From a virus (Duplodnaviria; Caudoviricetes): a stretch of DNA of 64,000 nt. A program made the position numbers and the translations under genes. This document shows, piece by piece, positions 51 through 23,831 of this stretch. The notes below the pieces were generated by a model. The model searched no databases. It was not told the origin of the DNA and was given only the letters and a program-made list of their open reading frames with translations. The stretch is taken from IMG/VR virus record IMGVR_UViG_3300026493_000002. One strand, given 5' to 3'. Numbering within the stretch: position 1 is the first letter of the stretch; every line of letters starts with the position of its first letter.

Positions 51-1004
51 TTACTGCGCGGGCCGGGACTTCGACTTCTTGAGCTTCTTCCGGTTGGGAT
101 AGCCCGGGCCCGATGCGAAGCCCTTGCCGAACTGCTTGGTCTTCTTGGCTGCATCACTCGCCAGACGGCCGACGAACTCCTTGGCCTTCGCACTGAGCGC
201 GCTCTTGCCGGCCTCTTGCTGATAGGCCTCATCGGCAGCAGCAACCTTCACTGCGAGCGGATTCAGGGCCTTCTTGCGCTTGGCCTTCGCCTTTTCGTAT
301 GCCTCGCTAGCCTTGTTCTCGAGGGCTTCCAGCGAGCGACGCTCCTTGCGGACATGCTCGTCGTAGTCGGCCAGAGCCTGCGAAGCATGATCCATGGAGT
401 CCTGTGCGGTCTTCACTTCGGCGTCGAGTTCGGCGCGCTTCTTCTGGAAGGCGTCGAACTTTACCTTGACCGCGGCACGCTTGCCGGCACGCGCGCTGTT
501 CTTGGCCGAGGTCAGCACCTTCTTGGCCTTGGCCAGCTGGGCTTTCGTCGGTGCCTTGGCGCTCTCGGACACGAAGTCGTGCAGCACGGGTGCGCTGCTG
601 GAGTGCGAGCTCCATTCGATCTTTTCGGTGCCGTACAGCATGATGATCCACGAGCCATCCTCGAACGTCTCGGCGGTCTCGGAAATGACGATGTGGTTCT
701 TGTCGCCCTTCGCGTTGATCGCGTAGATTTCGTTGGTGAACTCGTCGAAGCCGTGCTTCACCTCGAAGCCGGCGGAGCGCAGGGCGTTGGCGATCTTGAC
801 AGCGAGGTTCTTGCCGTCGTCTTCACCAGGACCGACCAGTTCGGCGCCATCGCCGTCATACAGGTCGTCGAGCTTGACCTTCGGCACGGTCTTCTTGATG
901 ACTGCGACCATGCCATCTGCCCACGGGTAATCGGCAGCAGTGCGGGTTTTCGACTCGCTGGTCTGCACACCCGTGGTGTCGACCAGATTGATCTTTCGGC
1001 TCAT
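51..1004 (-). CDS. Hypothetical protein, probably virion-associated, with Lys/Ala-rich coiled-coil C-terminus
   Basis: 317-aa ORF at the end of the structural run; N-terminal KINL...TSES leader. Confidence 0.7.
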   Translation of the reverse strand: MSRKINLVDTTGVQTSESKTRTAADYPWADGMVAVIKKTVPKVKLDDLYDGDGAELVGPGEDDGKNLAVKIANALRSAGFEVKHGFDEFTNEIYAINAKGDKNHIVISETAETFEDGSWIIMLYGTEKIEWSSHSSSAPVLHDFVSESAKAPTKAQLAKAKKVLTSAKNSARAGKRAAVKVKFDAFQKKRAELDAEVKTAQDSMDHASQALADYDEHVRKERRSLEALENKASEAYEKAKAKRKKALNPLAVKVAAADEAYQQEAGKSALSAKAKEFVGRLASDAAKKTKQFGKGFASGPGYPNRKKLKKSKSRPAQ

Positions 1005-1330
1005 GACTGTTGTTCTCGGTTGTGGAGCGGCATCACACTGAGGTCAATGTGAGGGCCGCCGCCAAATGAAATGATGTAGGCTCTTCGCCCGTGAGGCTTG
1101 TCGCTGCCTTGGTCTGCACATGAGCCACCTATGAAGTCGCAGATCGCTTGGATCAACTCTTCATCGCTAACCGCGTCCTCGACCCAGGGTATCGCCACTA
1201 GATCGAGGTCGTAGCTAAGAGAGCCGTGCACGGCAACACAGTAGCCCAGTTTTCGGCAGAGCTCCTGTATGCCCTGCAGACGCCACATGTAGAACATGTT
1301 GGCGCCTTTGATAGGCTCCCTGTTTGCCAT
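1001..1330 (-). CDS. Small conserved-type phage protein, possible minimal nucleotidyltransferase fold
   Basis: VAVHGSLSYDLDLVAIPW (GS..DxD); stop/start overlaps with both neighbours; function is inference. Confidence 0.55.
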   Translation of the reverse strand: MANREPIKGANMFYMWRLQGIQELCRKLGYCVAVHGSLSYDLDLVAIPWVEDAVSDEELIQAICDFIGGSCADQGSDKPHGRRAYIISFGGGPHIDLSVMPLHNREQQS

Positions 1331-1713
1331 CAGCGTTCGCGGCGTTCGTTGGACACGAGGCGCAGGCCGATCAGGGACCGTGGCAGGATGAACTGCGCGG
1401 TGCGCGGCGAGGACGATTCCGGATCGAGGTAACGATTGACCTGTTCCTCCTGCGACTCCAGCAGTTCGGAGTCGGTCTCGTCGGTGAAGTCCTCGATCTC
1501 GGAGGCGATCTTGATACCGCGTTCCTTGATGGCGTTCTGCTTCTTGTCGAAGTCAGTGAACAGCTTGGTGACGGCCTTACGGAAGCTGGACTCATGGTCC
1601 ACGCGTTCCTTTTCGACCTTGTCCAATGCCTCGAACATGGTCTTGAACTTCTTGGTCTCGTCTTCGGTCAGCGTGGAAGCGGTGACGGCGAAGTCATGAA
1701 GTTGGATTTTCAT
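1330..1713 (-). CDS. Hypothetical helical protein, probably virion
   Basis: Start moved to MKIQLHDFAVTAS; 127 aa. Confidence 0.65.
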   Translation of the reverse strand: MKIQLHDFAVTASTLTEDETKKFKTMFEALDKVEKERVDHESSFRKAVTKLFTDFDKKQNAIKERGIKIASEIEDFTDETDSELLESQEEQVNRYLDPESSSPRTAQFILPRSLIGLRLVSNERRER

Positions 1714-1786
1714 TGCGATGTTCCTGGGTTCTATGTTCGTAAGTGTCTCGGTGATGTGCAACCACCGAGACGCGTCTGGACTTGAA

Positions 1787-3259
1787 TCAGTGCGACACGG
1801 TGACGTTCATCACCTTGCCAACCTTGGCCTGCTTGGATTCGACCAGCTTCTTGTGGGCAGGTGCAAAGCCGGCGCGGATGAAGTGCATCACCGCGGACTT
1901 GCCGAGCTGGTTGACGAACTTCAAGCCGTACTTCTTGTCCTTCGGATCGGCCTGCACCGTGAAGTCCTGGTTGTACGACTTGCTGGCGTAGCGGTAGATC
2001 GGATCACCGCCGTTCTTGTCCACACTCACCAAGGTGTACGGGATCTTGGTGATGATCGACGCGCGGCCGGAAGGCTTGGAGTCAGCACCCGGCTTCAACA
2101 AGCGCGGCACGCTCGGGTCGGTCTTGACCATGCCGAGGCCGGTCGTTTCCATCTGCAACGTCTTGAGGTGACGATCGGCCATCTTGCGGTCGAAGGTCAG
2201 CGCGAAGTTGCGAGCCAGCCACTTCTGCATCAGGGGCTGGTCGGCCAGGGCCGGGCTCGGATCCTTGACGTACACAGCGCGAGGATCTGCGGGGTTGCGT
2301 GCGAAGCTGATCTGGAAATCACCGTTGGCATACGTGTACCACTCGGTCATCATCTTCTCGCCGCCGCGGACAGCAACGTTGCGATCCGGAACGGGCTTGC
2401 CGACCAGCTTGAGAACTACGTCGGCACGCCCCGGAACGTAGAACTTGTCCTTGGTCAGGGTGATGCCGCCACCGTCGTTTTCCTCGTCATAGCGGAAGCG
2501 GGCTTCGTAGCCGTACTTGCCACCCTTGGCATACGCACCGAGAACGGCACGCATGACTTCCGGAGTGAACACCTTCGGCTTGTCATTCTTGACGATCTGG
2601 TAGACGTTCGGCTTCACCGGATTCTGGACAGCACGGAACCCGTACACGTCATGACCGACCCAGAACGAGACCAGCGTGGATGCACGCAGCTTGCCACCGA
2701 CTTCAACAACGACGGAGACAGCACCAGCGACGTAAGCCGTGTTGGCGAACTCCTCGATCTCCTTCTCCAGGTCGGTCTTGAAGTTCGGGTCGTCCTGGAC
2801 GCTATCGACCCAGTTCTCCTGGTCCTCTTCGTTCGACTGCGAAACGAAGTCGCGCAGATCAATCTTGCTGGATACTCGGGAAGAGGCCAGTGCGGTGGCT
2901 TCGGTAACCTGCCGCACGTTGGTCATGGGGAACGGCGACTTGCCGATCGGGACGATGGAGTACTGACTGCCGCTCGGATGACGGGTGACCGCAACGCGGT
3001 TGGGACCACCCACTTCCTGAACAGTCCACGCCTTGATTCCGTTGGCGTCCAGGCCGGTCTTCACCAGGAAGCCATCCTCCACGAAGGAATCCATCAGCAG
3101 CTTGATGCGACGATAGCGCTCGGACTCGTTGGGCACAGTCAGTTCCAGATCGGCCTTGCCGGTCAGGAAGCGAGTGAGCTTGAGTCGCGGGAAGTGTTCC
3201 TTGATGCAGTCTTCCAGGTCCTTGACCCAGCGAGCGTTCGATTCGGAAATCATGTTCAT
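1787..3259 (-). CDS. Hypothetical structural protein
   Basis: 490 aa, directly downstream of the sheath gene, typical codon usage; no family recognised. Confidence 0.7.
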   Translation of the reverse strand: MNMISESNARWVKDLEDCIKEHFPRLKLTRFLTGKADLELTVPNESERYRRIKLLMDSFVEDGFLVKTGLDANGIKAWTVQEVGGPNRVAVTRHPSGSQYSIVPIGKSPFPMTNVRQVTEATALASSRVSSKIDLRDFVSQSNEEDQENWVDSVQDDPNFKTDLEKEIEEFANTAYVAGAVSVVVEVGGKLRASTLVSFWVGHDVYGFRAVQNPVKPNVYQIVKNDKPKVFTPEVMRAVLGAYAKGGKYGYEARFRYDEENDGGGITLTKDKFYVPGRADVVLKLVGKPVPDRNVAVRGGEKMMTEWYTYANGDFQISFARNPADPRAVYVKDPSPALADQPLMQKWLARNFALTFDRKMADRHLKTLQMETTGLGMVKTDPSVPRLLKPGADSKPSGRASIITKIPYTLVSVDKNGGDPIYRYASKSYNQDFTVQADPKDKKYGLKFVNQLGKSAVMHFIRAGFAPAHKKLVESKQAKVGKVMNVTVSH

Positions 3260-3269
3260 GCAACTGTCC

Positions 3270-4838
3270 TTACTCGGTAGCGCTGGCGGTGAAGCGCGCG
3301 CCAGTCTTGTTGATGGTGGCCTGCAGCAGGATACGCTTCGCCGGCAGGACCGGGTCGACGTACACGTCCAGGATCAGGTCACCGTTCGCGGTGATCTCCG
3401 GCGGGTTGTTGCTTTCGTCGCAGGTGACACCGTAACGATGCACACCACGGCCGTTCTTGACGTTCTCGAGGAAGCGTTCGCAGATTTCGACCAGCTTGCC
3501 GCGCAGGATTTCGTCGTTGGGGTTGAACACCGAATACAGCGAGGTGTCCGACAGCGACGTTTCGAGGTACAGCATCAGGCGGCGCACGTTGACGTTCGAC
3601 AGTGCGGAGCGCATGGTCTGCAACGTATCGGCACCCCAGATGGCGATACCCACGCCTTCGAGGACGCGGATCGGGTTGATCTGCGATTCGACAAGCGCAT
3701 CGCGGTCGCCCTGGTTGTACGTCTCACGCACACCGCGCACACGCAGGTTGCCGCGCACCAGACCGGCGGGAGCGAACCACGTGGCAGCTTCACGATCCGT
3801 ACGTGCGTAGGCCGCAGCGACGTAGCCACTCGGCGGTACGTACAGCAGTCGGCTGGCGTAGTTATCGGCAACCAGCAGGTCGCAGCAGTACAGCGCCGAG
3901 TAGGAACTGTTGAGCGCGAGGCTACCACGACGCCAGTTGATCGCATCCTGCACACGCTGCTCGCCAGACGGAACGTCCAGGATCGCCATGCAGTCCATGC
4001 GGTCGGCACAGATTTCATCCATGCGCTGCTGGATCGCGGGGTTGACCAAGCCGGCGTTGATCAGGATGTTGACCGAGATTTCTTCCGGGTTGCGGTAGAG
4101 ATCCCACGCCTGCATCAGCTGGCCGGTGGTTGCGCGAGTGCCGTTGGTGCCGCCGCCCAGCTGGGTCTGGATCACCGACAGGATGAACTTGCGCTTCGGG
4201 TTCTGCATGTACTGCGGATGCGTCTCGTTCTGGACGATGCGGATCAGGGCAGAGCGGCGGTTGATGTGTTCCTGGATGTTCTGCTGCACACCGAAGCCAT
4301 CGACCTGGTGATTGAGGACAACCAGGAACGACTCGCTCGCAACACCACTGCCGTTCTCGAACACGTCCACGTAGAACGAATTGTCGTTGACCTTGGTGTT
4401 CGGGTAGACGCGGACAACCAGCTGCTGGTTCCACTCGCCAGGATCGACGGCATGGACCACGAACAGCTCATCCGGCCCGAAGTCGTACTCGTCGGGATAC
4501 TCGGTGCCCGTCTCCCACTTGTAGAAGGAGTTGAGCGAGTTCTCGTTGATGAACACCGTCGCACCGCCGTACTGCGCACCGGGCGCAACACGGGTAACGT
4601 ACAGGCGGTTGCCTTCGTTCAGGAACGCGAGCGCCGAGTAGTGCAGGTAACCCAGCGAAGCGTCGGGCGTGCCGAACTGGCGGATGAAGCTCTGGATGCT
4701 GGTGATAAGCGTGCGCTTGTTCACCGGGCCGCGATTCGACTCGCCAACGATGGCGGCAACCGAAGTGCTGACCTGGGACGCCTCTTGGGAGTTGTCAATC
4801 TCCTTGACGTAAACGCCCGCGGAGGAATTGTTAGCCAT
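3270..4838 (-). CDS. Contractile tail sheath protein
   Basis: GVYVKEID N-terminus, WFAPAGLVRG, INPI, IWGADT and NVRRL sheath motifs. Confidence 0.95.
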   Translation of the reverse strand: MANNSSAGVYVKEIDNSQEASQVSTSVAAIVGESNRGPVNKRTLITSIQSFIRQFGTPDASLGYLHYSALAFLNEGNRLYVTRVAPGAQYGGATVFINENSLNSFYKWETGTEYPDEYDFGPDELFVVHAVDPGEWNQQLVVRVYPNTKVNDNSFYVDVFENGSGVASESFLVVLNHQVDGFGVQQNIQEHINRRSALIRIVQNETHPQYMQNPKRKFILSVIQTQLGGGTNGTRATTGQLMQAWDLYRNPEEISVNILINAGLVNPAIQQRMDEICADRMDCMAILDVPSGEQRVQDAINWRRGSLALNSSYSALYCCDLLVADNYASRLLYVPPSGYVAAAYARTDREAATWFAPAGLVRGNLRVRGVRETYNQGDRDALVESQINPIRVLEGVGIAIWGADTLQTMRSALSNVNVRRLMLYLETSLSDTSLYSVFNPNDEILRGKLVEICERFLENVKNGRGVHRYGVTCDESNNPPEITANGDLILDVYVDPVLPAKRILLQATINKTGARFTASATE

Positions 4839-4888
4839 TGGAATCTCCTGTGCGGATGATGCTAAGTGCGATAACCCTTAGACAGTTG

Positions 4889-5333: not shown

Positions 5334-5705
5334 TCAGCTGTAGGTAAAGCTCAGGCGCACCATCTCGGGGGCCGAGATTTCGATGCGCTCCAGCTCGCCG
5401 TAGAAGATGAAGACGCCGTGGCATGGCACGTTGGCGAGTTCACCAGACTTGTACTTGATGCGCAGGCGGATCGGCTGGTACGAGTTGATGATGACTGCGG
5501 TTTCAATGCCGTCGATCACGAACTGCTGACCCTCACCAGGACCGACTACCACGTCACCGCTGGATGCCGCACGGCCCTGTACCACTCGCTTGGCAATCGA
5601 ACCCTGCTGGGCGCGCTTGCGAAGTTGCAGGTCGGCAATGGTCGTCACGAACTGCGTAACGATGGTGCGCTCCAGTCCCTGACGCTTAGAACGAAGGTTG
5701 CTCAT
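5334..5705 (-). CDS. Hypothetical beta-rich structural protein
   Basis: Start MSNLRS preceded by GAGGAG; 123 aa. Confidence 0.65.
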   Translation of the reverse strand: MSNLRSKRQGLERTIVTQFVTTIADLQLRKRAQQGSIAKRVVQGRAASSGDVVVGPGEGQQFVIDGIETAVIINSYQPIRLRIKYKSGELANVPCHGVFIFYGELERIEISAPEMVRLSFTYS

Positions 5706-6426
5706 TGGTGGAATACTCCTCAGGGATAACGGGCTCGTACTCGCCGAAGAGGTCGTCTGCGTCGAGCATACGCGGATCCGAAACGTTCTCGCGCGAACCG
5801 TACACACCCTTGGATGCAACGCCAATCTGAGGATCAGCGGCATACACGGATGCAACGTCGCGGAAGAAGCCAGCCCACGTGTGGAAGATGAACTGGATGC
5901 TGACTTCGCCACCGCCGGGCTTGGTGGTGTCACCAGTGTCGGCAATGGGGATCGTCAGATTGTCCGGGATTTCGATACGGTTGTTCAGCACCAGCTGGTT
6001 GGCGAACTTGACGTCGAAGTTCAAGTTGGTCATCGCAGACAGGATGAGGAAGGTTTCGATCATCCCATACAGGCGCTTTGCATCCGAGTCGGTGTACTTC
6101 AACTCAAAGCCGAGCTTCACCGGGAACAGGAAACCCACAGAGGCGGTGTTTCGTGTTGCGCCGACTGTACCCATACGCATACCCACGCGGGCAGTGTTGC
6201 GGTTGTTTACGAGGTCACGGGTTGCCTGTGCGTCACTGGGCACTAGCCATGCGTATGGATACGTGTCGTCCTTCGTATTCTCCATCTGCGCCTTGATCTT
6301 GTCATCGGTGCTGATGCGAATACGCTTGACGCCGGTCTCACGCTGGAACACGGCACGCATGCCATGCAGGCCAGTCAACAGCAGACTGCTCTTGGCAATC
6401 TCCGCAGGAATGTGGATGCGAGCCAT
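5686..6426 (-). CDS. Hypothetical structural protein (possible neck/tail-completion)
   Basis: 246 aa between head and sheath genes; GGAG RBS; role inferred from position only. Confidence 0.6.
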   Translation of the reverse strand: MARIHIPAEIAKSSLLLTGLHGMRAVFQRETGVKRIRISTDDKIKAQMENTKDDTYPYAWLVPSDAQATRDLVNNRNTARVGMRMGTVGATRNTASVGFLFPVKLGFELKYTDSDAKRLYGMIETFLILSAMTNLNFDVKFANQLVLNNRIEIPDNLTIPIADTGDTTKPGGGEVSIQFIFHTWAGFFRDVASVYAADPQIGVASKGVYGSRENVSDPRMLDADDLFGEYEPVIPEEYSTNEQPSF

Positions 6427-6506: not shown

Positions 6507-6986
6507 CTATTGCTTGATCCGGACGGGACTCTCGGAGCCCATCACAAGACGCATCGGATGGGGACCACCACCATGGTTCCCACTACTCAGCGAGCTTGGT
6601 ACGATCTTCTGGCCGGGCACGCCCGGGTTCCAATCGTCGGAAGGTGCGTCGTCGCCATCTTCTTCGTCCTCAGCCAGGAGTTCGGAGGGTTCAACCTCTT
6701 CATCCGCAGAGAGCGAGGGGATAAGCGACATGGCGTCAGCCAGGCTCTTGGAGATTGATTCCAGACCAGCGCGTGGTGCGTCACTGGATTCAGATTCCCA
6801 ATCTCCGGACGACGGCCGCAGGTCTTCGGCGTCGAGGTCACCCTCAACATCCAGTTCCTGCAACAGTTCGTCCGCATCCGAAGAACTCAGGGACGTTGCG
6901 AACAACGAACCTGCTTCCTCGTAGCGACCATTGCGATACGCCACAGCGGCAAGCAACAGAAGATCACGAGCAATGTTCTGTTTCAT
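6507..6986 (-). CDS. Hypothetical acidic head-region protein
   Basis: 159 aa directly downstream of the capsid gene; repeated SLS/SES motifs. Confidence 0.7.
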   Translation of the reverse strand: MKQNIARDLLLLAAVAYRNGRYEEAGSLFATSLSSSDADELLQELDVEGDLDAEDLRPSSGDWESESSDAPRAGLESISKSLADAMSLIPSLSADEEVEPSELLAEDEEDGDDAPSDDWNPGVPGQKIVPSSLSSGNHGGGPHPMRLVMGSESPVRIKQ

Positions 6987-7060: not shown

Positions 7061-8173
7061 TCAGACGCGCTGGCCCTTGGCGATGGACTTGGCGTTGGCC
7101 AGGGTGAACGAGAACAGTTCGTTCAGCATCCAGCCCTTGGTGGTGTTGCCGTGGTCGGCGCCCGAGGTCGGGGTCGAGCGCACGCCGCCGCGATCGGTGT
7201 AGACCGCGTGGTGCTCCGGCGAGGAGACCACGTAGATTTCACCGCGGTTCAGGACCTTCTGGTTCGGCTGACGGAAGGCATCGGTCAGCAGGTTCAGGCC
7301 GACCAGGGTACCCAGCTGGCCGTGCAGCGCCAGATCGTACTTGGTCACCGGATCCAGGAACTCGTGGAAGTCCGGGTTGGCGATGATATCGGCCCAGAAG
7401 TCGTTGGCGATGATCGCGGTGGCGGCCGGCAGGTTCCAGTCGGTGACGGACTGGCGGATGCGAGCCAGGTGGCCCGGGCCCAGCTGACCGACGATGTACT
7501 CCAGCGGGTTGATCAGGCCGACGGCCTTGTCCGCAGCCTTCTTCCACAGACGGTCTTCGGCGACCATCACGGAGTCCAGGCCCTGGTTGTACAGTTCGTC
7601 CAGCAGATCGCCGGACACCTGCTCCAGTTCCAGCTGCTCGCAGCGCAGGTTCGCGATGATCTCGAACTCGGCGGCCTCGAACATCTTGTTGCGGATCAGC
7701 TGGTAGCCGACCGAGGCAGCGCTGGTCGCGGTGACGGCCACGGCGTCGTACGACGGCATGGCGACACGGGCGACTTCACCCGAACGCAGGGTCTGGCCCA
7801 GGGCCACGTTGCGCAGGAAGCCCTGGCGAGCGCGGACTTCTTCGATCTTGGTCGCGATGGACGAGCCGAGGGCTGCCCACTGTGCCGGATCGTGGTAGGC
7901 CGCGGTCAGAACTTCACGACGGTCGCGGATCAGGTTGGCGTGTTCCTGCGAGGAAGCCAGCGCCGAGTTCTCGACGGTGGTCACCTGGCCGCTGGACACG
8001 GCCTGCATCAGACCGCTGATGGCGCGGACCAGTTCCTTCTTGTCGTGCGCGTTGAACTCGCCGGTGGCGCTCGACAGGGACAGCAGGTTGCTGTTGCCCA
8101 ACTTCAGTTGGTCGATGCTGTCGCCGTTGCGCAGCACCATCTGGGCGCCGGAAAACATGTTGTTGCCGTTCAT
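7061..8173 (-). CDS. Major capsid protein
   Basis: 370 aa, strongly biased codons, position after protease, scaffold-like and 231-aa genes; EFEIIAN...EQ..GDLL.E....V.EDR pattern recalled from jumbo-phage capsids. Confidence 0.8.
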   Translation of the reverse strand: MNGNNMFSGAQMVLRNGDSIDQLKLGNSNLLSLSSATGEFNAHDKKELVRAISGLMQAVSSGQVTTVENSALASSQEHANLIRDRREVLTAAYHDPAQWAALGSSIATKIEEVRARQGFLRNVALGQTLRSGEVARVAMPSYDAVAVTATSAASVGYQLIRNKMFEAAEFEIIANLRCEQLELEQVSGDLLDELYNQGLDSVMVAEDRLWKKAADKAVGLINPLEYIVGQLGPGHLARIRQSVTDWNLPAATAIIANDFWADIIANPDFHEFLDPVTKYDLALHGQLGTLVGLNLLTDAFRQPNQKVLNRGEIYVVSSPEHHAVYTDRGGVRSTPTSGADHGNTTKGWMLNELFSFTLANAKSIAKGQRV

Positions 8174-12981: not shown

Positions 12982-13437
12982 TCAGTGGAGTTCGTCGAGG
13001 TTGAAGCGGGGATCGGTGAGGGCGAAACGCACCTCATGGACCTTGTGACGGCCGCGATCCTCGACTTCGGTGGCGACCACTACCAGTTCGCTATCTCGGG
13101 TGTAGATATTGATCTGGCTGTGCAGGTTGTTGACGTGCGGGAACAGGTCGGGGATCATCAAGCCAGCGCCGTTGTTGCGCTGGAAGCCGCGAAGCTGCAG
13201 GCGGTTGTCGAGGTAATGCTCCAGCATGAATCCAGGTTCGCCCCTACGGGCCTCGATGCCGGCGCACAGGGCGTCGTCACGGAACTCGAAGAAATACTGG
13301 AGATCCTCGATATCGCCGGTGAACACGTCGGCCATGAGACGCATTACAGCAGCGCGCGTCTCAGGCAGAAGTGGTCTCAGCACCGGTAACTCGATGGGTT
13401 TCGGTCCGATGGGGAGGAACAGTCTCATGACCGTCAC
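12982..13437 (-). CDS. Hypothetical protein
   Basis: 151 aa; start overlaps the TopIB stop. Confidence 0.65.
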   Translation of the reverse strand: MTVMRLFLPIGPKPIELPVLRPLLPETRAAVMRLMADVFTGDIEDLQYFFEFRDDALCAGIEARRGEPGFMLEHYLDNRLQLRGFQRNNGAGLMIPDLFPHVNNLHSQINIYTRDSELVVVATEVEDRGRHKVHEVRFALTDPRFNLDELH

Positions 13438-15173
13438 TCCCCGGCGCTACTGCCAGCCTTCGGCACAGCCGACGGCGGACGGACACCCAGGCTGTCGTAG
13501 AAGTTGTGCACCACCTGCGGGTCGATGTACGACTTCACGGCAGTCTTCCACTCGATCTTGTCACCACCAGTCGTGTGATGCAGCTTGGCGCCGATCTCGG
13601 TCATCTGGGTGGCGAACCACTTGTTGACCTCGGACTCCTTGAGCTTCTCACCCTTCTTGGCACGTGCCGTGAACGGGTTCTTGGCAAGCAGCTGGCGAGC
13701 CATCTTGGTACCGGTCGAACGTCGGAAGTCGTGCGGAGACAACTGGGTGCCGAGGCTCTTGAGGTACTTGCTGATGGCGTGGCGGATGATGGCCTTGCCG
13801 CGGAAGGTGAAGACCAGTTCGCCCGACTCGATATCCGTCAGGCGCTTCTTCATGATTTCCGCGATCAAACGGCCTTCGGCAGTACCCAGCGGATATTTCG
13901 ACGGCTGGGCAGCACCCTTCTTGCCCATGTAGTTGAAGTGCAGCGAGTTGCCCTTGATGGCAACGTGATCGCCGGTCAGGGTCGTCAGGCCGTAGGTGGT
14001 CTCACCCTTCGACTTGTTGCCCTTGCCGCCGATTCGCGCGCTGGTCACGTAAAGCAGTTCGACCATCATGGCCATCATCTGCTCTTTGGTACCCTTGCGC
14101 TTGAGGTCCTTCAACCACTTGGCGCGGATCTTCTCCTCGTTGTCGAGGAAGTCCGACACGGCAGCATGACGCTTCACCTTGTTGGCGGCGTTCATGGTGA
14201 CGGTACGGATGCGGCCCGAGGATACGTCGCCACCCTTCTCGCTCTTCCCGTACACCTGCGCATACAGCACGTAGGTGTCGTTCTGGGCGGGATCGTACTT
14301 CGGGTTCATACGCACCAAGCCGACCGGCGCCTTGTCCAGTTCGTGGCCTTCGGCGGTGTAGAACTTCATGTTCTCGTCCACCTGGCCACCGGTGAAGCCG
14401 CGCGGCATGTTGTGCAGCACGTTCTGCTTTTCGAGGAACTTGGAGACCTCGTCGACAGGCACCATCACCTTCTGCTTGTTGCGCACGTAGCGGAAGACCA
14501 GGCGCTTGACCTCGCGATTCAGCACCTTGTTCAGGCGAGCGTACTCTTCCATCAGCTGCGGCTTGTCTTCGCGCAACTGCTTGAGGACACGCGGATCGAG
14601 GGCGTAGCCGTACGTCGGCTTGCCACCCGTGATCTTCTGATACAGCTTGCGCATGTCCTGGCTGGCGGAGTTCGGATCGAGGCCGTCGATAGTCGTCGGT
14701 TCGTCCTCGTCGCTCAGGAAGATCGAGGTCAGGCGGGTGTTCTTGATCGCCGAGATGTTCTTCTCGACGTAGGCCCAGGCACTGGGGTTGTCCTTGATCA
14801 GGCAGCGGCCGAGCTTGACCAGCAGCGTGTACAGGGACTTCTCGATGCGGGTGTCAGCGTAGATCGACACCCGGTTCTTGACGATGGCCTTGCCGAGGTC
14901 TTCCACGTCATCGTCGTCGCCGAAGAGGTCATCGCCGCGCACGACGCGCTTGCTGACGGCCTTGAACTGAGTTGCGAAGCCGAAGCGAGTCGCAAACTTG
15001 TTGGCCTGTTCCTGCCACTGACGGTACGTGGAGCGGAACTCGGAAATGTCGTTGGAGTTGATATCCAGCACGAGGACTGCCAAGCAGGCAATCATTGCAC
15101 CGGTCGGGGTGTCACTGACGTCGGCGGATTCGCTGACCAGCAACATCTTCTGTACGTTGGGGATGTGTTGCAT
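13434..15173 (-). CDS. Type IB DNA topoisomerase with long N-terminal extension
   Basis: Catalytic pentad in order: SARIG (R), YMGKKG (K), HDFRR (R), LHHT (H), SYIDP (Y), plus TYGLTTL. Confidence 0.9.
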   Translation of the reverse strand: MQHIPNVQKMLLVSESADVSDTPTGAMIACLAVLVLDINSNDISEFRSTYRQWQEQANKFATRFGFATQFKAVSKRVVRGDDLFGDDDDVEDLGKAIVKNRVSIYADTRIEKSLYTLLVKLGRCLIKDNPSAWAYVEKNISAIKNTRLTSIFLSDEDEPTTIDGLDPNSASQDMRKLYQKITGGKPTYGYALDPRVLKQLREDKPQLMEEYARLNKVLNREVKRLVFRYVRNKQKVMVPVDEVSKFLEKQNVLHNMPRGFTGGQVDENMKFYTAEGHELDKAPVGLVRMNPKYDPAQNDTYVLYAQVYGKSEKGGDVSSGRIRTVTMNAANKVKRHAAVSDFLDNEEKIRAKWLKDLKRKGTKEQMMAMMVELLYVTSARIGGKGNKSKGETTYGLTTLTGDHVAIKGNSLHFNYMGKKGAAQPSKYPLGTAEGRLIAEIMKKRLTDIESGELVFTFRGKAIIRHAISKYLKSLGTQLSPHDFRRSTGTKMARQLLAKNPFTARAKKGEKLKESEVNKWFATQMTEIGAKLHHTTGGDKIEWKTAVKSYIDPQVVHNFYDSLGVRPPSAVPKAGSSAGE

Positions 15174-15185
15174 CGGATCGGGTCC

Positions 15186-15413
15186 TTACTTGGAAGCCTT
15201 CTTGACGATGGACTCGACCATGTCCTCGAGCAAGCCACGCAGCTTCTCGGTGTGGCCCTTGGAGAACGCCTCAGCCATCGCTTCGCCCGTGTCGCCGCTG
15301 GTCTCGCTCATGATGGCGGACAGCAGCTGGGAACGAGGCGACTTCTTTTTCTTGCCACCGGCGGCAATGACGATCTGGAGCTTCTGGGGAGCGCGCGGCT
15401 TGGTATTGGACAT
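15186..15413 (-). CDS. Hypothetical protein
   Basis: Start MSNTKP after GAGG; 75 aa. Confidence 0.65.
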   Translation of the reverse strand: MSNTKPRAPQKLQIVIAAGGKKKKSPRSQLLSAIMSETSGDTGEAMAEAFSKGHTEKLRGLLEDMVESIVKKASK

Positions 15414-17085: not shown

Positions 17086-19059
17086 TTAGAGTTTGTACTT
17101 CTTCTTGAAGGACACCAGGTCGTAGACAGGGATACCCAACGACTCGGCCTTGGAGAGCTTGCTGCTGGACTTGCCCGGCACTGCAATCAGGATCGTGGTC
17201 TTGGCGTTCACGCCGCTGGCAATCGAGCCGCCGTTGGCAACAATCGCCTTCTCCAGTTCCTTGTCGCGCACACCAGTGAAGCACACCGCTTGGCCAGTCA
17301 TCTTCTTGCCGACGACCTTGACCTTTGCTGGCATCAGCGGCTTGATCTTGGAGAGACGCAGCCACTTGGTGAACTTGTGGAAGCCAGCGGCGAAGATCGC
17401 AGCAGTCTTCTCTTGGAAGCCTTCGATGCCGACGACCTTGGCCTTGATCTGATTGGGGGACAGCTTCTCCCACGTTGTCAGCAGGTTGGGATACGCATTG
17501 ATGATGGCCTCGAAACGCTTGCTGCCGAAGCCTGCACCGAAGTGACCACTGCCTGCCATGAGCAGATGCAGCGGAGCTTCCTTGCACTTGGCGCGAATCG
17601 AAGCCGCCAGCTTCTCTGCACTGCGACGCTTGAAGCCCGGGATCTCCAGGAAGTCCTCAGCATCCGCACGCAGGATCTTGATGATCGACGTGTAGCCGGC
17701 CTCGGTCAGCTTCTGCACCACACCGAGCTTGACACCCTCGACGTCCAGCTTCACGAAGAAGTCGGTGATGCGCTTGTCACGCACCAGGTCGGTCTTGGTG
17801 TCCATCATGATGTACACCTTGCCGGAATCCCAGGTGTAGTCGATACCCTTGGGCAGGCCCGGAGCCTTTGCGGCCTTGACGACCTCGACCACATGCGGGA
17901 TCACGTCGCCACTACGGACGATCTTGATGATGGCGCCCTTACCCAGCGGCTTCTCCACCAGCTTGACGTTGTTGCGACGGGCCTTGCCGACTTCCTTGCT
18001 GCGGTAACCGTGCACGATGAAGAAGGCGTTGTGACCCGAAATGTTCGTGACCGTGACACCTGCCAGAGGTGTGGGCGGGATGACGATGACGGGTTGCAGC
18101 TTGCCGTGCTTGGTCTCTTCCCAGTCGATGCGCTCGATCTTCACCGTTGCGCTGTCGTCCTCACCCTGATCCTTGAAGGCGAAGGCGTAGGACGGACTGT
18201 GCGTACCAGCCGGCGGCCGCTTGTTGATCGAATTGTTCTCGATCACCAGACCGTCGATTGGACGCGGAGACTTCGCACGCGCTTCCTTGAACAGGCGTTG
18301 CAGCTTCGGAATGTCGATGGTATCGGTGACACGCCACGGGGCGGTCATGAAGCCCATCATATCCAGAACCTGGAACGCGCGCTGCGGAGTCATACGCGGG
18401 CTGATGACCTCGTAGGCAAGCACGTGGGCCTTCTTGAGGGCCGAGTGGTCACCACGAATGCGGTTCATCATACCCGCGACGAGGTTGCGACTGTTGGCAA
18501 AGCCCTCAGAGGCAAACGACTTCTTGAACACCGCATCGGTCATCGAAATCTCGGCGCGGATGGTCATGCCCTCCTTGGGCGCGAGCTTCGGCACGTCGAG
18601 ATACGGGATCAAATGCGAGACGTCCTGACCGATGGTGCCGTCGCCGCGCGTGTACACCGACGACAACTCCCAGCCCTTCTTACCCTTGCCTGCGTAGACA
18701 AGTTCCAGGGACGATCCGTCCTCCTTGTTGGAGATAACGTACGGTCCCGGATACTTGGCAGTCCAGCGCGCGAATTCCTTCGGCATGTCCGGCTTGATCT
18801 TGGACAGACTGAACAGCGGATAAGGCAACTTCACCTTCTTGCGCCCAACCTTGGAGCTACCGACCTTCTTCAACAGCGGATGTTTCGGATCACGACTGCG
18901 CAGTTCGTCCTCCAGCTGGTCGTACTTGGCGTCGGTCAAGCTGAGCTTGCGGCCGGCGTAGTACAGGTCCTTGGCCTTCTGGATGGCGCGCTCCAGGATG
19001 GTCGTGGACAGCTGGCGAATCTGGGCCTTGCTGTAGGTATTCAGTTCGGAGAGCTTCAT
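17086..19059 (-). CDS. ligA: NAD-dependent DNA ligase
   Basis: YY...D..YD domain Ia, KEDG adenylation motif, TRGDG, SGDVIP, HhH region and C-terminal BRCT; start MKLSEL. Confidence 0.95.
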   Translation of the reverse strand: MKLSELNTYSKAQIRQLSTTILERAIQKAKDLYYAGRKLSLTDAKYDQLEDELRSRDPKHPLLKKVGSSKVGRKKVKLPYPLFSLSKIKPDMPKEFARWTAKYPGPYVISNKEDGSSLELVYAGKGKKGWELSSVYTRGDGTIGQDVSHLIPYLDVPKLAPKEGMTIRAEISMTDAVFKKSFASEGFANSRNLVAGMMNRIRGDHSALKKAHVLAYEVISPRMTPQRAFQVLDMMGFMTAPWRVTDTIDIPKLQRLFKEARAKSPRPIDGLVIENNSINKRPPAGTHSPSYAFAFKDQGEDDSATVKIERIDWEETKHGKLQPVIVIPPTPLAGVTVTNISGHNAFFIVHGYRSKEVGKARRNNVKLVEKPLGKGAIIKIVRSGDVIPHVVEVVKAAKAPGLPKGIDYTWDSGKVYIMMDTKTDLVRDKRITDFFVKLDVEGVKLGVVQKLTEAGYTSIIKILRADAEDFLEIPGFKRRSAEKLAASIRAKCKEAPLHLLMAGSGHFGAGFGSKRFEAIINAYPNLLTTWEKLSPNQIKAKVVGIEGFQEKTAAIFAAGFHKFTKWLRLSKIKPLMPAKVKVVGKKMTGQAVCFTGVRDKELEKAIVANGGSIASGVNAKTTILIAVPGKSSSKLSKAESLGIPVYDLVSFKKKYKL

Positions 19060-19075
19060 GGTGTGGGCACTGTGC

Positions 19076-19612
19076 TTAATGGTGGAAGTCGCGGAAGTCG
19101 AGTCCGTCGTCGTCATCGCGGAAGGTGTCCTCGTCGAGGTCGAACTCCTCACGCTTCTTCTTGGGTTTCAACAGCTGGGCTTTATCCTGCCTGCTCGGAC
19201 TCTTTACAGAGGACGGCTTAGCAGCCTTGCGGATCTTGTCCAGACGTTCGAGCTTCACGTCCAGCTTGGTCGGGCGCTTCGGAGCAGCGGGCTCCTTGAT
19301 TACGACCTTGATCGGCTTCGGCGGCTTGGCAGGCTTCTCCACGGCGGAGAACTCAACCGGATCACGGTGGCGACGGCTGCTATCGAGCAGTTCACCACCG
19401 TCTTCCACTTTGAGGAAGTAGCGAATGTCAGGACGGGAGGGAACAACCACGCGGTCAACGCGGTTGTTCAGGTTGAACAGTCCGAACAGGTCACCGTTCT
19501 TCAACGTCAACGTCTGGCCCTTGGTATCCTTGATGACGAACGGCTTCTTCCCTGTGTACTTGTACCACAGATGTTTCTCGGCCTTGATGGGCCGTGCGGC
19601 TTTGGCTTCCAT
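19076..19612 (-). CDS. Hypothetical basic protein
   Basis: 178-aa ORF in operon. Confidence 0.7.
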   Translation of the reverse strand: MEAKAARPIKAEKHLWYKYTGKKPFVIKDTKGQTLTLKNGDLFGLFNLNNRVDRVVVPSRPDIRYFLKVEDGGELLDSSRRHRDPVEFSAVEKPAKPPKPIKVVIKEPAAPKRPTKLDVKLERLDKIRKAAKPSSVKSPSRQDKAQLLKPKKKREEFDLDEDTFRDDDDGLDFRDFHH

Positions 19613-19629
19613 GACGGTGTTACCTTTGG

Positions 19630-21201
19630 TTACTTGGGCATGAATGCGTTGAGCATATCGTACAGTGCATAGCGGCCACCCTTCGACTGCCTCATCCGCT
19701 TGTTGTCTTTGCGATCCTGCGCGATGGAGATCTGGCGCTGAGCCTCGTTACGCCACGTCTCGGTACTGACCGTCTTCGCATCCTGCTCGGAGGGCTTGTA
19801 GATGATGCTAACCGGAACATTCATCACGGTCATCAGGCCGAGCTTTCGCGGATCATAGGTCAGGACCGCCCAGCGAGTGCGCGGGCCCTTACCGTTCTGG
19901 ATCAGCAGGATGCCGGGGATCGTGCGATCCGGCTTACGGCTGTCAACCCACGAGACTGCCATGAGCGAGTGCAGCTGGTAGGGAGACAGCGGCTCCAGTT
20001 TGGACTTGGTGCTGCGGATCGTCTCCTTCTTCTGCTCCACGCGCTGCTTCGTGGCTTCGTCCATGAAGGCCGCGTTGTCGTACTTGCTGAAACGTGCAGG
20101 CGTCAGGCCGACGTTGACCATCCAGCGACGCCAGTTCGGACCATGACCGCCTTCGGCCTTGAGTGCAGCGCCGCCGATACGGTCCAGTTCGTACACAGCC
20201 TGATGGCACATTTCATGGACAATCGTGGTGACAACCAACGGCTCTTTGCCGCTGCCGAACAGGTTCGGACTGATCTGCATGAGACGTTTGCCATAGCTGT
20301 ACTGACCACGCAGACGGAACTTCTCGACGCTGACAGCCTTGAGCAGGTGCAGATGCGGCCGATGTAGCTTACCACCGAAGAGGCGCTTGTTCGCGTTGTC
20401 GTACACCCGTTCAATGTAGGCAAGCATTGCACTGCGCTTACCCTTGGCCTTGGCGAACATGGACGGATCGCCTACCAGCTTGGTCAGCTGCACGTCCTGC
20501 GGATGGATCGAGGACAGGTCCGGCTCGTTCTTCTGCGGCAGCTTCGGCTCGGGTTCAATCTGGATGGTGAGCTTCTTGACCTTCGTGGAAGGCTTCGGCG
20601 CACGCAACGGCTTGAACGGTTCGGTCGGTGGCTCGGGATCAACCGCGCGCTCAACCTTGCGACGCAGTTTGGTCGGCGCAGGGCGCACAGTCTGATTCTC
20701 GGGCCAATCGTTTTCGGTTTCGAGGCCAGGACGACGGCGGCCCGTGGGCTTCGTCTTCGCAGGCTTGTCGACCTTCACCTTCTCGACCTTGGTCTTGCGT
20801 ACGGTCTTCTCAACCTTCGGAGCCTTGGCGGGCTTCTTGGTCTTGACTACCTTCTCGGCCTTCTTGCTACCACCCTTCGTCTTGGACTTGAGGGCTTTCT
20901 TCTTTTCGGTGAACTTCTCGATCTTGCCCGTGAGCAAGTCGATCTTCCCCTGCTGCAGGTCGATCGCGGCTTGTGCTTTCTTGGCGGCAGCCTTGACTGC
21001 GGCCGGCACTCGTCCGGACTTCTGTGCCTTCTTCAATTCTGCAAGGGCGGGCTTACCCTTGTTCTGAGCGACCTTGAGCTTGTCCTTACGGATAGCGATA
21101 CGCTCTTTGAAGTAGGCAATACGGTCGTCGATGGCCTCAATGCGTTCGGCAGACGACAGGCTGACGAAGCCCATGTCGCTCACGCGCAGGTGAAGTTTCA
21201 T
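19630..21201 (-). CDS. SprT-like zinc metalloprotease with long Lys/Pro-rich N-terminal region
   Basis: TIVHEMCH...HGPNW SprT signature; start MKLHLR. Confidence 0.85.
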   Translation of the reverse strand: MKLHLRVSDMGFVSLSSAERIEAIDDRIAYFKERIAIRKDKLKVAQNKGKPALAELKKAQKSGRVPAAVKAAAKKAQAAIDLQQGKIDLLTGKIEKFTEKKKALKSKTKGGSKKAEKVVKTKKPAKAPKVEKTVRKTKVEKVKVDKPAKTKPTGRRRPGLETENDWPENQTVRPAPTKLRRKVERAVDPEPPTEPFKPLRAPKPSTKVKKLTIQIEPEPKLPQKNEPDLSSIHPQDVQLTKLVGDPSMFAKAKGKRSAMLAYIERVYDNANKRLFGGKLHRPHLHLLKAVSVEKFRLRGQYSYGKRLMQISPNLFGSGKEPLVVTTIVHEMCHQAVYELDRIGGAALKAEGGHGPNWRRWMVNVGLTPARFSKYDNAAFMDEATKQRVEQKKETIRSTKSKLEPLSPYQLHSLMAVSWVDSRKPDRTIPGILLIQNGKGPRTRWAVLTYDPRKLGLMTVMNVPVSIIYKPSEQDAKTVSTETWRNEAQRQISIAQDRKDNKRMRQSKGGRYALYDMLNAFMPK

Positions 21202-21205
21202 GGGC

Positions 21206-21907
21206 TTATCCCTTCTTACGCAGGCGACGAACCCGCTTGGCGCCCTTGAAGCCAGCAACCAACGAACTGGCCGTCGCGGGCATGAAGCCCGGCGGGAATC
21301 CGTTGTTGTCGTCCGACTTCATGAACAGCTGCTTGAGGCTGGTGCGGCTGAGCGCGTTGCGGACGAACCGCAGGAAGTCGATCTTGGTCATCTTGTCAGC
21401 GCGCGGGACCTCTTCGATCTTGTCCCAGTAGCCCTTGAACATGTTGAAGACCGTGTTGTTGCTGTTCATGTACTTGGTGCCGAAACGCTTGAATGCGAGA
21501 TCGATCACCACGTTGCCGACGCGGACCACGAAGTGGATCAGGTCCTTTGCGATCAGCTGACGGCCGAACTCGTTCATGGCGTTGGTCAGGACCGGCGAGC
21601 AGTCGACCAGTTCACCCTTGAAGCCGTGACAGACCAGCAGCTGGCTATCGAAGCCATTGATGGTCAGATGACGGAACAGGGTTTCAGCCAGCATCGCCGC
21701 ATTCTCTTCGGCGACGATCACGTTGGTCTGGGCCTGCTTGGCCTTCTGGCTGCTGTTGAGGAAGTCAGTCACCGCTGCGTACAGGGTGATGCCGTTGTTG
21801 CCACGGCCCAGGCCACCGCTGATGCTCTCCAGCTCACCCAGCGAGGTGGCAATGACAGCATCCGACTCGGAACTGAGCGGGATTTGGATCTTGGAAATCT
21901 TGGACAC
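21206..21907 (-). CDS. Hypothetical virion protein, possible transglutaminase/papain-like fold
   Basis: IHFVVRVGNVVIDLAFKRF resembles the His/Asp strands of that fold; 233 aa. Confidence 0.5.
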   Translation of the reverse strand: MSKISKIQIPLSSESDAVIATSLGELESISGGLGRGNNGITLYAAVTDFLNSSQKAKQAQTNVIVAEENAAMLAETLFRHLTINGFDSQLLVCHGFKGELVDCSPVLTNAMNEFGRQLIAKDLIHFVVRVGNVVIDLAFKRFGTKYMNSNNTVFNMFKGYWDKIEEVPRADKMTKIDFLRFVRNALSRTSLKQLFMKSDDNNGFPPGFMPATASSLVAGFKGAKRVRRLRKKG

Positions 21908-21938
21908 GTTGGACCTCGAAAGGGTTGCAGCCCCGGGA

Positions 21939-23831
21939 TTAACCTCGGGGCTTGATGGATACGGTCTGATTGGACATGCGCTTGCGCACGTTGGCTTCCT
22001 TCATGGCGCGAGCGATGCGACGATTGATCTTCTCGTTCGCTGCCTTCTGGCCGGTGAGCAGACTGCGCTTGCCGGTCGCACTGACGTTGTAGAGTTCACC
22101 GGTGTCACCGAACTCGCGGTTCAGCAGTGCAGGCTTACCACGCACCGACTGAGTGCTGCTGCGAGTCTTCTGCAACGGCGGCGGGATCAGGAACGAACGG
22201 GCTTCCGCCGACATATCGTCATCACCGCTCTCGTCGTCCTTCGGCAGCAGGGCGTCGATCTTCTGCTTGTACTCCTGCAGGCGCTTGCGCGTTGCAAGGT
22301 CGTCGTCCTGCTGCTTGAGCAGTTCGTCGAGGTTCAAGCCACCGGCTGCGGCCAGCACGCGGATCGGGACGGGCACGCCCTTCTCGGTCATCGACTGGAG
22401 CATGTCCATGTAAGCGGTGTCGCCCTCGGGCTTCAACTGCTTGGACCACGACACGCTCGGGATCAGCAGGCGGCTGCCGTCGTTAAGGGTGTACAGGGCT
22501 TCTTCCGGAGCCAGGCTGTCCATCAGACCATCGGTGCGGATGATCTTGCCCTTGTGGTTCACGGTGATGCCGTTAATCATCGACACCAGCGGGAACAACT
22601 TCTCGTAGAAGAACTTCCGGGTCATCATTTCGCGGTATGCACGGAGCATATCCACGAACACGGTCATGCTGTTGTCGTTGACGTTGTAGTTCGCGTCGCC
22701 AGACAGGAACGCTTCCGAAATCGACAGCGCGCGCAGCTTCTGCGGCAGTACGGAGTCGGAGAAGTCGGTCACCTTCCAGAAGTCGCCACCCTGACGAATC
22801 TCCTCCACGCCGACACCGGCACGGGTTGCAACGATGGCACCGAGCGGATCGGTATCAGCGTTGAGGAACATGTCCACCATGAACTCCATGTCCTGCGGAC
22901 TCGGAATCCAGTTGTCACCGTCACCCAGCGTCAGGTGCATGATGCCGCGCTGGCGTCGTGCAGACTCGACAAGGGTACCACGGAACAGGTTCTTTTCGAT
23001 CAGGTACAGCGGCAGCAGACGACGGTAGTAGCTGACGCCCATGTCCGTATCGGCGAACGTCTTGCGCGGGATGTACGTGGTCGTCATCGGGTCGAGCTCC
23101 ACAGAGCCAGCCTTGATCTTGTCGAACACGTCCGCACCCACCAGCTTCATCAAACGCTCAAGGCGCTTGGGGTTCATTTCCAGCACGGCCTTGTGCTGCT
23201 CACTGAACGTAGCGGTGATGACCGGTTCCTGCGAGTAGAACGGCAGGGTCTGGATGCCGAGGTTCTCCGGGGCGTAGGGCATCACGTCCACGAAGACCTT
23301 CTTGTCGCGGTTGTAGAGCATCGAGTGGCAGTGCAGGCCCAGCACCAGCTGGTCAACCGCCATCTCGGGAATCAAGGTCTTGCAACCCAGACGCTCCACG
23401 TTCTCGTTGTAGATCGAGAGGATCTTGTCATCCTCCAGGCCGCCGAGCGAGAAGTCGCCGAACGGCAGCATGGACATGAGGTCGACAGCACTACCGCCGA
23501 CGGGATCGTTGTAGTAAATGTCGCGGTACAGCGAGTACAGGATGCGGTAGTTGTTCGGCATCAGACCGACAAGCATCGGGTCCGTGTCGATGGTGACCGG
23601 CATGCTGCCCATCTGGGTGTTCGGCATCGCCATGTTGATGCCGCTCTCGGACGTCATGACGTCCGACACCTTGCCATCGGTGACCTTGGACTCGGCCTTC
23701 TTCGAGTTACGCACCTTGCTGTCCATTCCCAGATGGGAACCGTCAGTGGACGTCGGCAATGCAGCTGCCGTCGCAACGTTCGCACCTGCCGGGCCGGGCC
23801 TGGTGTACTTGCTTTTCTTGATACTCAGCAT
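21939..23831 (-). CDS. Portal protein
   Basis: 630 aa from MLSIKK; just downstream of terL; helical N-terminal LYRDIYYNDPVGGSAVDL block recalled from jumbo-phage portals. Confidence 0.75.
   Translation of the reverse strand: MLSIKKSKYTRPGPAGANVATAAALPTSTDGSHLGMDSKVRNSKKAESKVTDGKVSDVMTSESGINMAMPNTQMGSMPVTIDTDPMLVGLMPNNYRILYSLYRDIYYNDPVGGSAVDLMSMLPFGDFSLGGLEDDKILSIYNENVERLGCKTLIPEMAVDQLVLGLHCHSMLYNRDKKVFVDVMPYAPENLGIQTLPFYSQEPVITATFSEQHKAVLEMNPKRLERLMKLVGADVFDKIKAGSVELDPMTTTYIPRKTFADTDMGVSYYRRLLPLYLIEKNLFRGTLVESARRQRGIMHLTLGDGDNWIPSPQDMEFMVDMFLNADTDPLGAIVATRAGVGVEEIRQGGDFWKVTDFSDSVLPQKLRALSISEAFLSGDANYNVNDNSMTVFVDMLRAYREMMTRKFFYEKLFPLVSMINGITVNHKGKIIRTDGLMDSLAPEEALYTLNDGSRLLIPSVSWSKQLKPEGDTAYMDMLQSMTEKGVPVPIRVLAAAGGLNLDELLKQQDDDLATRKRLQEYKQKIDALLPKDDESGDDDMSAEARSFLIPPPLQKTRSSTQSVRGKPALLNREFGDTGELYNVSATGKRSLLTGQKAANEKINRRIARAMKEANVRKRMSNQTVSIKPRG

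Follow-up and report, generated by a model that had tools for sequence, protein, structure and literature searches.

A short N-terminal leader, with the clade consensus M-[KR]-[IL]-x-[IL]-S-[L]-S-[AS], is shared by unrelated proteins encoded in and around the head module of a jumbo myophage from soil that is uncultured and belongs to the Lu11/PaBG clade (IMG/VR record IMGVR_UViG_3300026493_000002). The stretch analysed, called here the window, is 64,000 nucleotides long with a GC content of 59%, and encodes 75 proteins, every gene lying on the minus strand; coordinates refer to it and are collected in Table 1. The leader is modular and disordered, its conservation ends at a sharp boundary, and it finishes in a Ser word that recurs at conserved sites of the major head protein (MCP) and of a scaffold-like protein. 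At a probability of a little under 0.6, we read it as a head-targeting leader comparable to the capsid-targeting sequence (CTS) of phage T4, which would be removed by the prohead protease at a small-x-Ser site instead of x-x-Glu.

The preliminary description of this DNA had drawn attention to the strict word [KR][IL][QNH][IL] in the first 15 residues of six proteins, to a looser KMLL in topoisomerase IB (TopIB), and to an SES, SLS or TAS tripeptide at residues 11-18 of five proteins. The seven N-termini are all found where it placed them and the tripeptides are correct in all five cases. Against 0.18 expected, a figure derived from four matches in 18,609 internal positions, the strict word is carried by six of the 75 proteins; these six fall within the 28 genes of the block running from TerL to p317 (proteins without a family name are denoted by their length in residues) and there is none among the remaining 47. 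Since the strict motif had been fitted to the data, a large family of degenerate four-residue words was searched on real and control N-termini as a post-hoc correction. After correction the result is marginal for the window as a whole, controls equalling the observed p in 1/70, 4/70 and 3/70 sets. Within the block the strict word ranks first of all motifs (p 1.2e-10), a value matched in 0/300 internal-segment, 0/300 within-protein-shuffle, 1/300 column-shuffle and 0/300 other-gene control sets, and the word is enriched on the block N-termini to a degree that one of the 1200 sets equals. Ser words occur at a density of 1.83 per 1000 residues inside the block versus 0.35 elsewhere. The leader is missing from the replication genes of the window, as had been claimed, and the background cases conceded at the time are genuine, dnaB having ALASS at residue 37 and the 58844 gene VSLSE at residue 4. 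The DnaB-like helicase (27971-29440) also begins with a leader-like MRLFSQSLEL, which was rejected as a chance resemblance, the PaBG ortholog beginning differently.

An explanation that we consider quite improbable is that the six cases in the window are mostly due to chance and N-terminal bias, in the form of Lys at position 2, AT-rich early codons and beta-strand starts, with a real element in the SprT family only. The family-wise p for the whole window of just 0.01-0.06 or so would be in keeping with this, as would the drift of the strict word in homologs, its varying offsets and the composition of the N-termini, which are slightly richer in K, N, Q and I and have early codons with a GC content of 0.55 versus 0.59. 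AT-rich 5' codon bias was nevertheless rejected as the cause, as it is equally strong in both halves of the window, within the block and beyond it, and lifts the expected count no more than about 1.5-fold. The codons used for the word also vary among the genes (AAA/AAG, CTT/CTG/CTC, CAA/CAG), which places the conservation of the leader at the level of the protein. Further points against chance are the block-wise controls and, in two related loci described below (L008 and L011), the presence of the same leader on non-homologous proteins.

The observation is confirmed, and the relatives make the case stronger than the window alone. The nearest isolates are the Pseudomonas phages Lu11 and HRDY3 (MCP approximately 57% identical), PaBG and NCTB, with the Erwinia and Dickeya jumbo phages and phiRSL1/BcepSauron farther away. 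Metagenomic relatives are closer as judged by MCP identity, which is 85% for L004, 74% for L005 (a 236-kb contig) and 60-64% for L006-L009; L011 is a related 183-kb contig in which the modules have the same order as in the window. A megablast search of the region against phage genomes gave no match and portal-based scans of IMG/VR and GTDB found no relatives.

The leader is most clearly seen in the SprT-like metalloprotease. Homologs of this protein are about 30% identical to it, and only across the SprT domain, with N-termini such as MEIDIALGRPQGFASLSS, MKLLISLTAT, MRILLSLSSA and MRVLIGRPLIRVLASQ. In 108 full-length representatives with a mutual identity of <=50%, obtained by exhaustive search, the core expression [ILVM]x[ILV][SAP][LIVM][ST] within 14 residues of Met1 is present on 27, with no occurrence in 45,912 internal positions. 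The family consensus is M-[KR]-[IL]-[LNQ]-I-S-L-S-A; conservation stops sharply after the Ala and the first folded domain begins a few residues further on. In the clade-wide form the residue at the third position of the strict word is mostly Leu, and in the window the consensus is rendered as KIQIPLSSES, KLHL..VSLSSA and KMLLVSESA.

The same short peptide is found on non-homologous proteins of one phage in L011, L008 and the window, its carriers in the window being p233, SprT, TopIB, p75 and p148. Two small orphans of 92 and 137 residues, encoded between the protease and the scaffold gene of L008, begin MKINISLSSAS and MKIQISLSTME. In L011 the carriers are SprT, two proteins of 165 and 168 residues that flank the protease, and a p75-family protein starting MKTIISVSKK; the protease-flanking pair (MKILISLSAG and MKILISLSSR) are similar to one another only over the first ~45 residues. 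Searches of the small leader proteins against PHROGs and Pfam returned no family. Among the 253 genes of the related loci the strict word has three matches versus 0.38 expected (P 0.007), these being PaBG gp083 and the two small L008 proteins, none of which is orthologous to any of the six in the window. The consensus core has nine matches versus 0.9 expected, a rough count because four of the nine are doubtful (three are transmembrane (TM) or lipoprotein signals and one rests on an uncertain start) and because the gene caller, based on GC at third codon positions (GC3), missed the low-GC L011. PaBG gp267 (L013:38297-38722) and gp083 (L001:36150-37112) both begin (A/L)IKINL.EA, a PaBG-specific form of the word.

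While a shared leader on unrelated head-module proteins is borne out, the strict [KR][IL][QNH][IL] is a local, degenerate form of it and does not hold as the conserved unit. In p246 RIHI becomes RIFI or RLSI in the relatives, in p75 KLQI becomes KLHI or KIRV, in p127 KIQL becomes KINV and in TopIB KMLL becomes KVLM or KLIM; [QNH] at position 3 is, therefore, not a conserved feature. Membership of the original six also needs revision. SprT, p233 and TopIB are good members, p75, p317, p148 and p490 moderate, and p246 and p127 weak, with p148 and p490 likely members that had been overlooked.

The p233 leader is kept in a 79%-identical homolog (P0002); the C-terminal tail of this protein is basic and has PATASS close to the C-terminus. 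The N-terminal extension of TopIB, some 20 residues in length, is retained in L004 (KVLMVSESA) and L005 (KLIMVSQSA) and is missing in L007, L008 and L011, the PaBG enzyme instead beginning MHTSLSAV. Homologs of p75 begin MKTIISVSKK (L011), MTKTFISLSKK (L008) and MSTTIISLSKK (L007), followed by a conserved LLSAIM..GDTG; as the L007 and L008 proteins read TIISLSKK and TFISLSKK, KLQIVIAAGG in the window p75 can be regarded as a decayed copy. The counterparts of p148 begin MRLYLSLG in L004 and MKIFVPMP in L005, and the L011 protein occupying the same slot, to which no sequence homology of p148 was detected, begins MKILISLSAG. The N-termini of 60%-identical homologs of p317 are unrelated to that of the window protein, with one of them (P0012) retaining DSESSS seven residues before its YQWADGM core. 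In the L005 homolog of p127, MKINVVANQPNFVAKAAT, the Ser word is lost. The word in p246 reads RIFIP in L004 and RLSIP in L005 and is gone in L007, L008 and L010. The p490 gene is an insertion relative to L005. Six of the nine candidates are basic, with isoelectric points of 9.4-10.3 versus a median of 7.7.

An AlphaFold2 model of a SprT homolog (P0022), built from a 39-sequence alignment, has a mean predicted local distance difference test score (pLDDT) of 88.7. Residues 1-9, MKILISLSA, have a pLDDT of <50 and no secondary structure, with the first beta-domain starting at residue 17. A peptide that is strongly conserved, disordered and placed ahead of unrelated folds would be expected to be a short linear signal and not a structural element. 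The hydrophobic alternation and the Lys/Arg start, reminiscent of the n-region of a signal peptide, might suggest that the leader is either the first beta-strand of the following domain or a Sec/lipoprotein signal peptide, but this is very improbable. The structural strand is rejected by the model, in which the unstructured residues stand beside a domain with a pLDDT of 95, and the folds that follow the leader are unrelated to one another. In place of a hydrophobic h-region of 7-15 residues followed by AxA or a lipobox, the leader has only about nine residues, with no helix in the model, and what comes after it is polar or charged sequence and a folded domain of cytoplasmic type, in contrast to the true lipoprotein signal at L012:9689.

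The Ser words that the preliminary description had quoted from the scaffold-like protein, the capsid (LSLSS and ALASS), the portal (TSES) and the 159-residue protein are all present, and the part of its claim by which the Ser-x-Ser ending of the leader recurs at conserved capsid and scaffold-like sites stands. By sequence comparison the ending, S-[LE]-S or [AS]LSS, is found in the invariant MCP site and in the enriched scaffold words. The first capsid site lies within a block, [AS]LS[SE]xTGE[FI]NA at residues 32-42, that is invariant in 10/10 clade MCPs, out to PaBG. The MCPs of phiRSL1, BcepSauron and other distant phages align only from residue 36-38, which puts the Ser word on the border of a variable propeptide at the N-terminus. 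At the column of the second site [AT][LVT]ASS is present in 7/10 clade MCPs, the others being PaBG, L007 and L008. The loss of approximately 20% of its mass reported for the PaBG MCP could not be assigned to this second site, as PaBG lacks the word.

In the scaffold-like protein [TLI]ASS occurs four times, a count that 0/500 shuffles equal. A generalised Ser word is enriched 3-5 fold over composition shuffles in 10/10 scaffold homologs (P <=0.001 in nine), and several of the sites are positionally conserved to PaBG, such as that at residues 638-643 of the window protein, where ATASS, ATASA, STSS, SSAS, SASS or NASS is found. Its N-domain and its C-terminal part are conserved, and it also contains CxxC pairs and very long tracts of Asp/Glu. 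In PHROGs, as in PaBG and Lu11, its label is 'ATPase', and in HRDY3 it is encoded by two separate genes.

In p317, TopIB and the portal the Ser word is located where a variable N-terminus meets the conserved core. Translated searches (tblastn) with the portal against those of PaBG and the Dickeya phages give alignments that start at residue 60-71, the TSES site being unaligned in PaBG. Homologs of p159 have TSMSS (L004), AALAS (L005) or AQAAS (L008) in the place of TSLSS, with acidic residues next. The simplest common rule for these words would be small-x-Ser, in the form [S/A/T]-[L/A/E/Q]-S with A, S or E as the next residue, a parallel to the S/A/G-x-Glu and A-x-Glu rules of phiKZ and SPN3US in which Ser takes the place of Glu.

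The leader could alternatively be a genuine short linear motif that is not a cleaved capsid tag and is recognised by some other partner, for example a phage chaperone, a factor acting in assembly or a membrane-associated site of assembly, or it could signal degradation or timing. The likeness of its S-L-S to the capsid and scaffold words would then be coincidence or reflect a common binding partner. A modular, disordered and conserved leader would fit this equally well, its cleavage is a prediction from sequence, some of the carriers are found among tail or neck genes, and approximately 80% of the head proteins of SPN3US are uncleaved (PMC10052503). We nevertheless think this rather unlikely, given that the Ser word falls exactly at the boundary of the capsid propeptide as well as at the junctions in p317, TopIB and the portal, that the scaffold-like protein has it several times over, at conserved positions, and that the leader genes are tightly clustered around the protease and scaffold genes.

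The candidate for the enzyme that would remove the leader is encoded at 12219-12974, between TopIB and the scaffold gene. It matches phrog_18299 'head maturation protease' with an E-value of 4e-83, and a feature search of the ESM-Atlas places it in prohead core protease clusters (0.98), with lower values of 0.90-0.91 for Peptidase_S77/S78/S80. An AlphaFold2 model with a pLDDT of 49 was not used. The ortholog in Lu11 is Lu11_0071. A short form of the protease is found in the window, L004 and L005 and long forms in L007 (6292-7239), L008 (5035-5982) and L011 (17928-18872). The latter have an N-terminal extension of 45-70 residues, starting MLII[AS]DP, with a conserved G-L-S directly ahead of the catalytic part that could be a site of self-processing.

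For PaBG, 14 virion proteins have been identified by matrix-assisted laser desorption/ionisation (MALDI) of gel bands, and the MCP and others are proteolytically processed (PMC7412058). Band 9 is gp083, which is thus a virion protein by mass spectrometry (PMC7412058 Table 1); it starts MLIKINLLEA and its gene lies just before the scaffold gene. It was considered as the protease and rejected, as it shows no alignment to the proteases, and O152_gp260 is the protease of PaBG. A 221-kDa virion protein described as 'RuvB helicase-like' was matched by size to O152_gp284 (L013:10542-16451), which starts MGSLFTLNSLSAA and has an SLSA word at residues 9-12; phages of this clade do, therefore, have large enzymes in their particles.

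Taken as a T4-like head-targeting signal, the disordered leader would mark unrelated proteins whose genes lie within or near the head-morphogenesis module, its hydrophobic-alternating first half addressing them to the assembling prohead core and its small-x-Ser ending serving as the cutting site of the prohead protease. The same protease would also trim the capsid protein at the invariant ALS[SE] and cut the scaffold-like protein to pieces at its numerous words of the [TV]A[TL]ASS type, and would probably trim the portal and p159. The cargo would comprise TopIB, the SprT/Spartan-like metalloprotease and several small, mostly basic orphans, which would remain associated with the DNA and may accompany it on delivery. 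From the shared leader and its Ser word we infer encapsidation, cleavage with its scissile bond, and injection.

Several points weigh against this reading. Pfam (including permissive), phmmer and profile-against-PDB searches with the candidate protease were all empty, and to our knowledge no prohead protease cuts after Ser. Virion identification among leader-bearing proteins extends only to PaBG gp083 and gp284, with the termini unmapped, and a search of the literature found no mapped cleavage sites for the Lu11/PaBG clade. In the window the leader is degenerate, with offsets varying from residue 2 to residue 11, and the conserved Ser word is absent in p246 and p127. Together with p317 and p490 these two proteins also have neck or tail genes as neighbours, and for these four the designation as head cargo is uncertain. 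Given the leaderless TopIB of L007, L008 and L011, packaging of this enzyme would not be constant in the clade. Hydrophobic TM and lipoprotein signals yield false positives with the core expression and the sets of Ser words were chosen after inspection of the data.

The layout of the block is completed by p132, beside p159 and p246, and by p109, between p127 and p317. Throughout the clade the head module contains both TopIB and the SprT/Spartan-like metalloprotease (the window, L011, L007/L008 and, in PaBG, gp084/gp089), and the NAD ligase and the 2H/LigT protein adjoin the pair. SprT/Spartan is the class of enzyme that clears TopI-DNA crosslinks in cells. In L011 a multi-PAS-domain protein is encoded beside TopIB inside the head module (L011:14493-15791).

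Table 1. Genes of the block, candidate leaders and Ser words in the window, all on the minus strand (-).
Feature	Position	Strand	Basis or remark
TerL	24194-26383	-	family searches
Portal	21939-23831	-	PHROGs
p233, 233-aa orphan	21206-21907	-	GTG start, Shine-Dalgarno GGAG
SprT-like metalloprotease	19630-21201	-	Pfam SprT-like
NAD ligase	17086-19116	-	family searches
2H/LigT-like protein	15733-16230	-	family searches
p75, 75-aa protein	15186-15413	-	gene coordinates
TopIB (topoisomerase IB)	13434-15173	-	Pfam Topoisom_I
p148, 148-aa protein	12982-13428	-	between TopIB and protease
Candidate prohead protease, 251 aa	12219-12974	-	phrog_18299, PHROGs
Scaffold-like acidic protein, 699 aa	9039-11138	-	PHROGs label 'ATPase'
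Virion structural protein	8264-8959	-	family searches
Major head protein (MCP)	7061-8173	-	phrog_2522; HK97-type
p159, acidic 159-aa protein	6507-6986	-	gene coordinates
p246, 246-aa protein	5686-6426	-	phrog_17324
Tail sheath	3270-4838	-	PHROGs
p490, 490-aa orphan	1787-3259	-	between sheath gene and p127
p127, 127-aa protein	1330-1713	-	gene coordinates
p317, basic 317-aa protein	51-1004	-	gene coordinates
SprT-like leader, residues 1-18, MKLHLRVSDMGFVSLSSA	21148..21201	-	N-terminus reads MKLHLRVSDMGFVSLSS
p233 leader SKISKIQIPLSSES	21863..21907	-	fits consensus core expression
TopIB leader MQHIPNVQKMLLVSESA (..QKMLLVSES)	15123..15173	-	looser KMLL form
p75 degenerate leader ..PQKLQIVIAAGG (..PQKLQIVI)	15366..15413	-	homolog comparison
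p148 probable leader MRLFLPIG	13405..13428	-	same slot in relatives
p317 leader region MSRKINLVDTTGVQTSES	951..1004	-	TSES 8 residues before YPWADGM
p127 weak candidate leader MKIQLHDFAVTAS	1675..1713	-	strict word KIQL
p246 weak candidate leader MARIHIP	6406..6426	-	Ser word absent downstream
p490 possible short leader MNMISES	3239..3259	-	resembles SprT homolog P0041, MVLISESA
Capsid site 1, LSLSS, MCP residues 31-35	8069..8083	-	invariant block
Capsid site 2, ALASS, MCP residues 71-75	7949..7963	-	column comparison
Scaffold-like words [TV]ATASS (four), VVAASS, TAVAS, AALAS, QALAS	eight sites, next two lines	-	sequence scan
Scaffold-like word sites 1-4	9153-9170, 9210-9227, 9393-9407, 9543-9557	-	
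Scaffold-like word sites 5-8	9714-9731, 10365-10382, 10431-10448, 10779-10793	-	
Portal TSES, residues 60-63	23643..23654	-	start of conserved portal core; single instance
p159 TSLSS, residues 31-35	6882..6896	-	SLSS/SLSA three times in p159

If the leader is indeed a cleaved packaging signal, the prohead protease would cut after Ser and not Glu, and small-x-Ser would be a class of specificity new beside the Glu-specific enzymes of T4 and phiKZ. TopIB and the SprT-like crosslink protease would travel inside the capsid; TopIB is also carried in the cores of poxviruses. The packaged, and possibly injected, proteome could then be read straight from the genomes of the clade by a sequence rule, applicable to Lu11, PaBG, HRDY3 and their metagenomic kin and probably to the Erwinia and Dickeya relatives, and the short tag would be a candidate for loading foreign proteins into large capsids. 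That all of this amounts to an undescribed head-loading code of the Lu11/PaBG type, made up of a nine-residue disordered MK(I/L)x(I/L)SLS(A/S), a small-x-Ser protease, and packaged TopIB, SprT/Spartan-like and small basic proteins delivered with the genome, is put forward only tentatively, the odds being somewhat against the proposal as a whole.

In T4 the prohead protease gp21 cuts off the CTS of the internal proteins IPI-III and of Alt (Mullaney & Black 1996, cited in PMC10052503). As in that system, the leader described here is a peptide of about ten residues at the N-terminus of unrelated, often small and basic proteins encoded near the head genes, it stands directly ahead of the folded part, and its end word recurs at what are here predicted to be maturation sites of the capsid and scaffold proteins. 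It differs in sequence, with MK[IL]x[IL]SLS[AS] in place of MKTYQEFIAE, and in having a Ser-type end where that of T4 is Glu. It also differs in its setting, the Lu11/PaBG clade with an HK97-type MCP (phrog_2522), and in a putative cargo that includes TopIB and the SprT-like protease. The consensus leader has no conserved Glu that would conform to the (L/I)-x-E, S/A/G-x-E or A-x-E sites; SES may be read as x-S-E|S, SLS[AS] not. It would be CTS-like in function, but falls outside the Glu-site rule of the T4 and phiKZ systems.

Cleavage by phiKZ gp175 follows the rule S/A/G-x-E and that by SPN3US gp245 A-x-E, with Val at P4 and Ser at P1', and in both phages the prohead protease removes N-terminal propeptides of head proteins (PMC10052503). 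These are also jumbo phages with N-terminal propeptides on many head proteins, some of 20-24 residues and the long ones cut more than once, and the residue at P3 is likewise small (S/A/G there, S/A/T here). P1, on the other hand, is Glu in those phages and would be Ser here, the candidate protease here has no detectable match to the Pfam S77, S78 and S80 models, and the leader here is a conserved and transferable 9-mer, no such common 9-mer having been described for SPN3US (PMC10052503).

There is a further likeness to the cargo-loading peptides of encapsulins, which are terminal, too, as well as short, disordered and conserved; small and hydrophobic residues alternate in them, and they send unrelated enzymes into an HK97-fold shell. 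These are, however, usually C-terminal and uncleaved and bind the shell protein directly. The Ser word itself bears some resemblance to the sites of herpesvirus assemblin, a serine protease of capsid maturation that cuts Ala|Ser sites in a small or aliphatic context at the termini of the scaffold.

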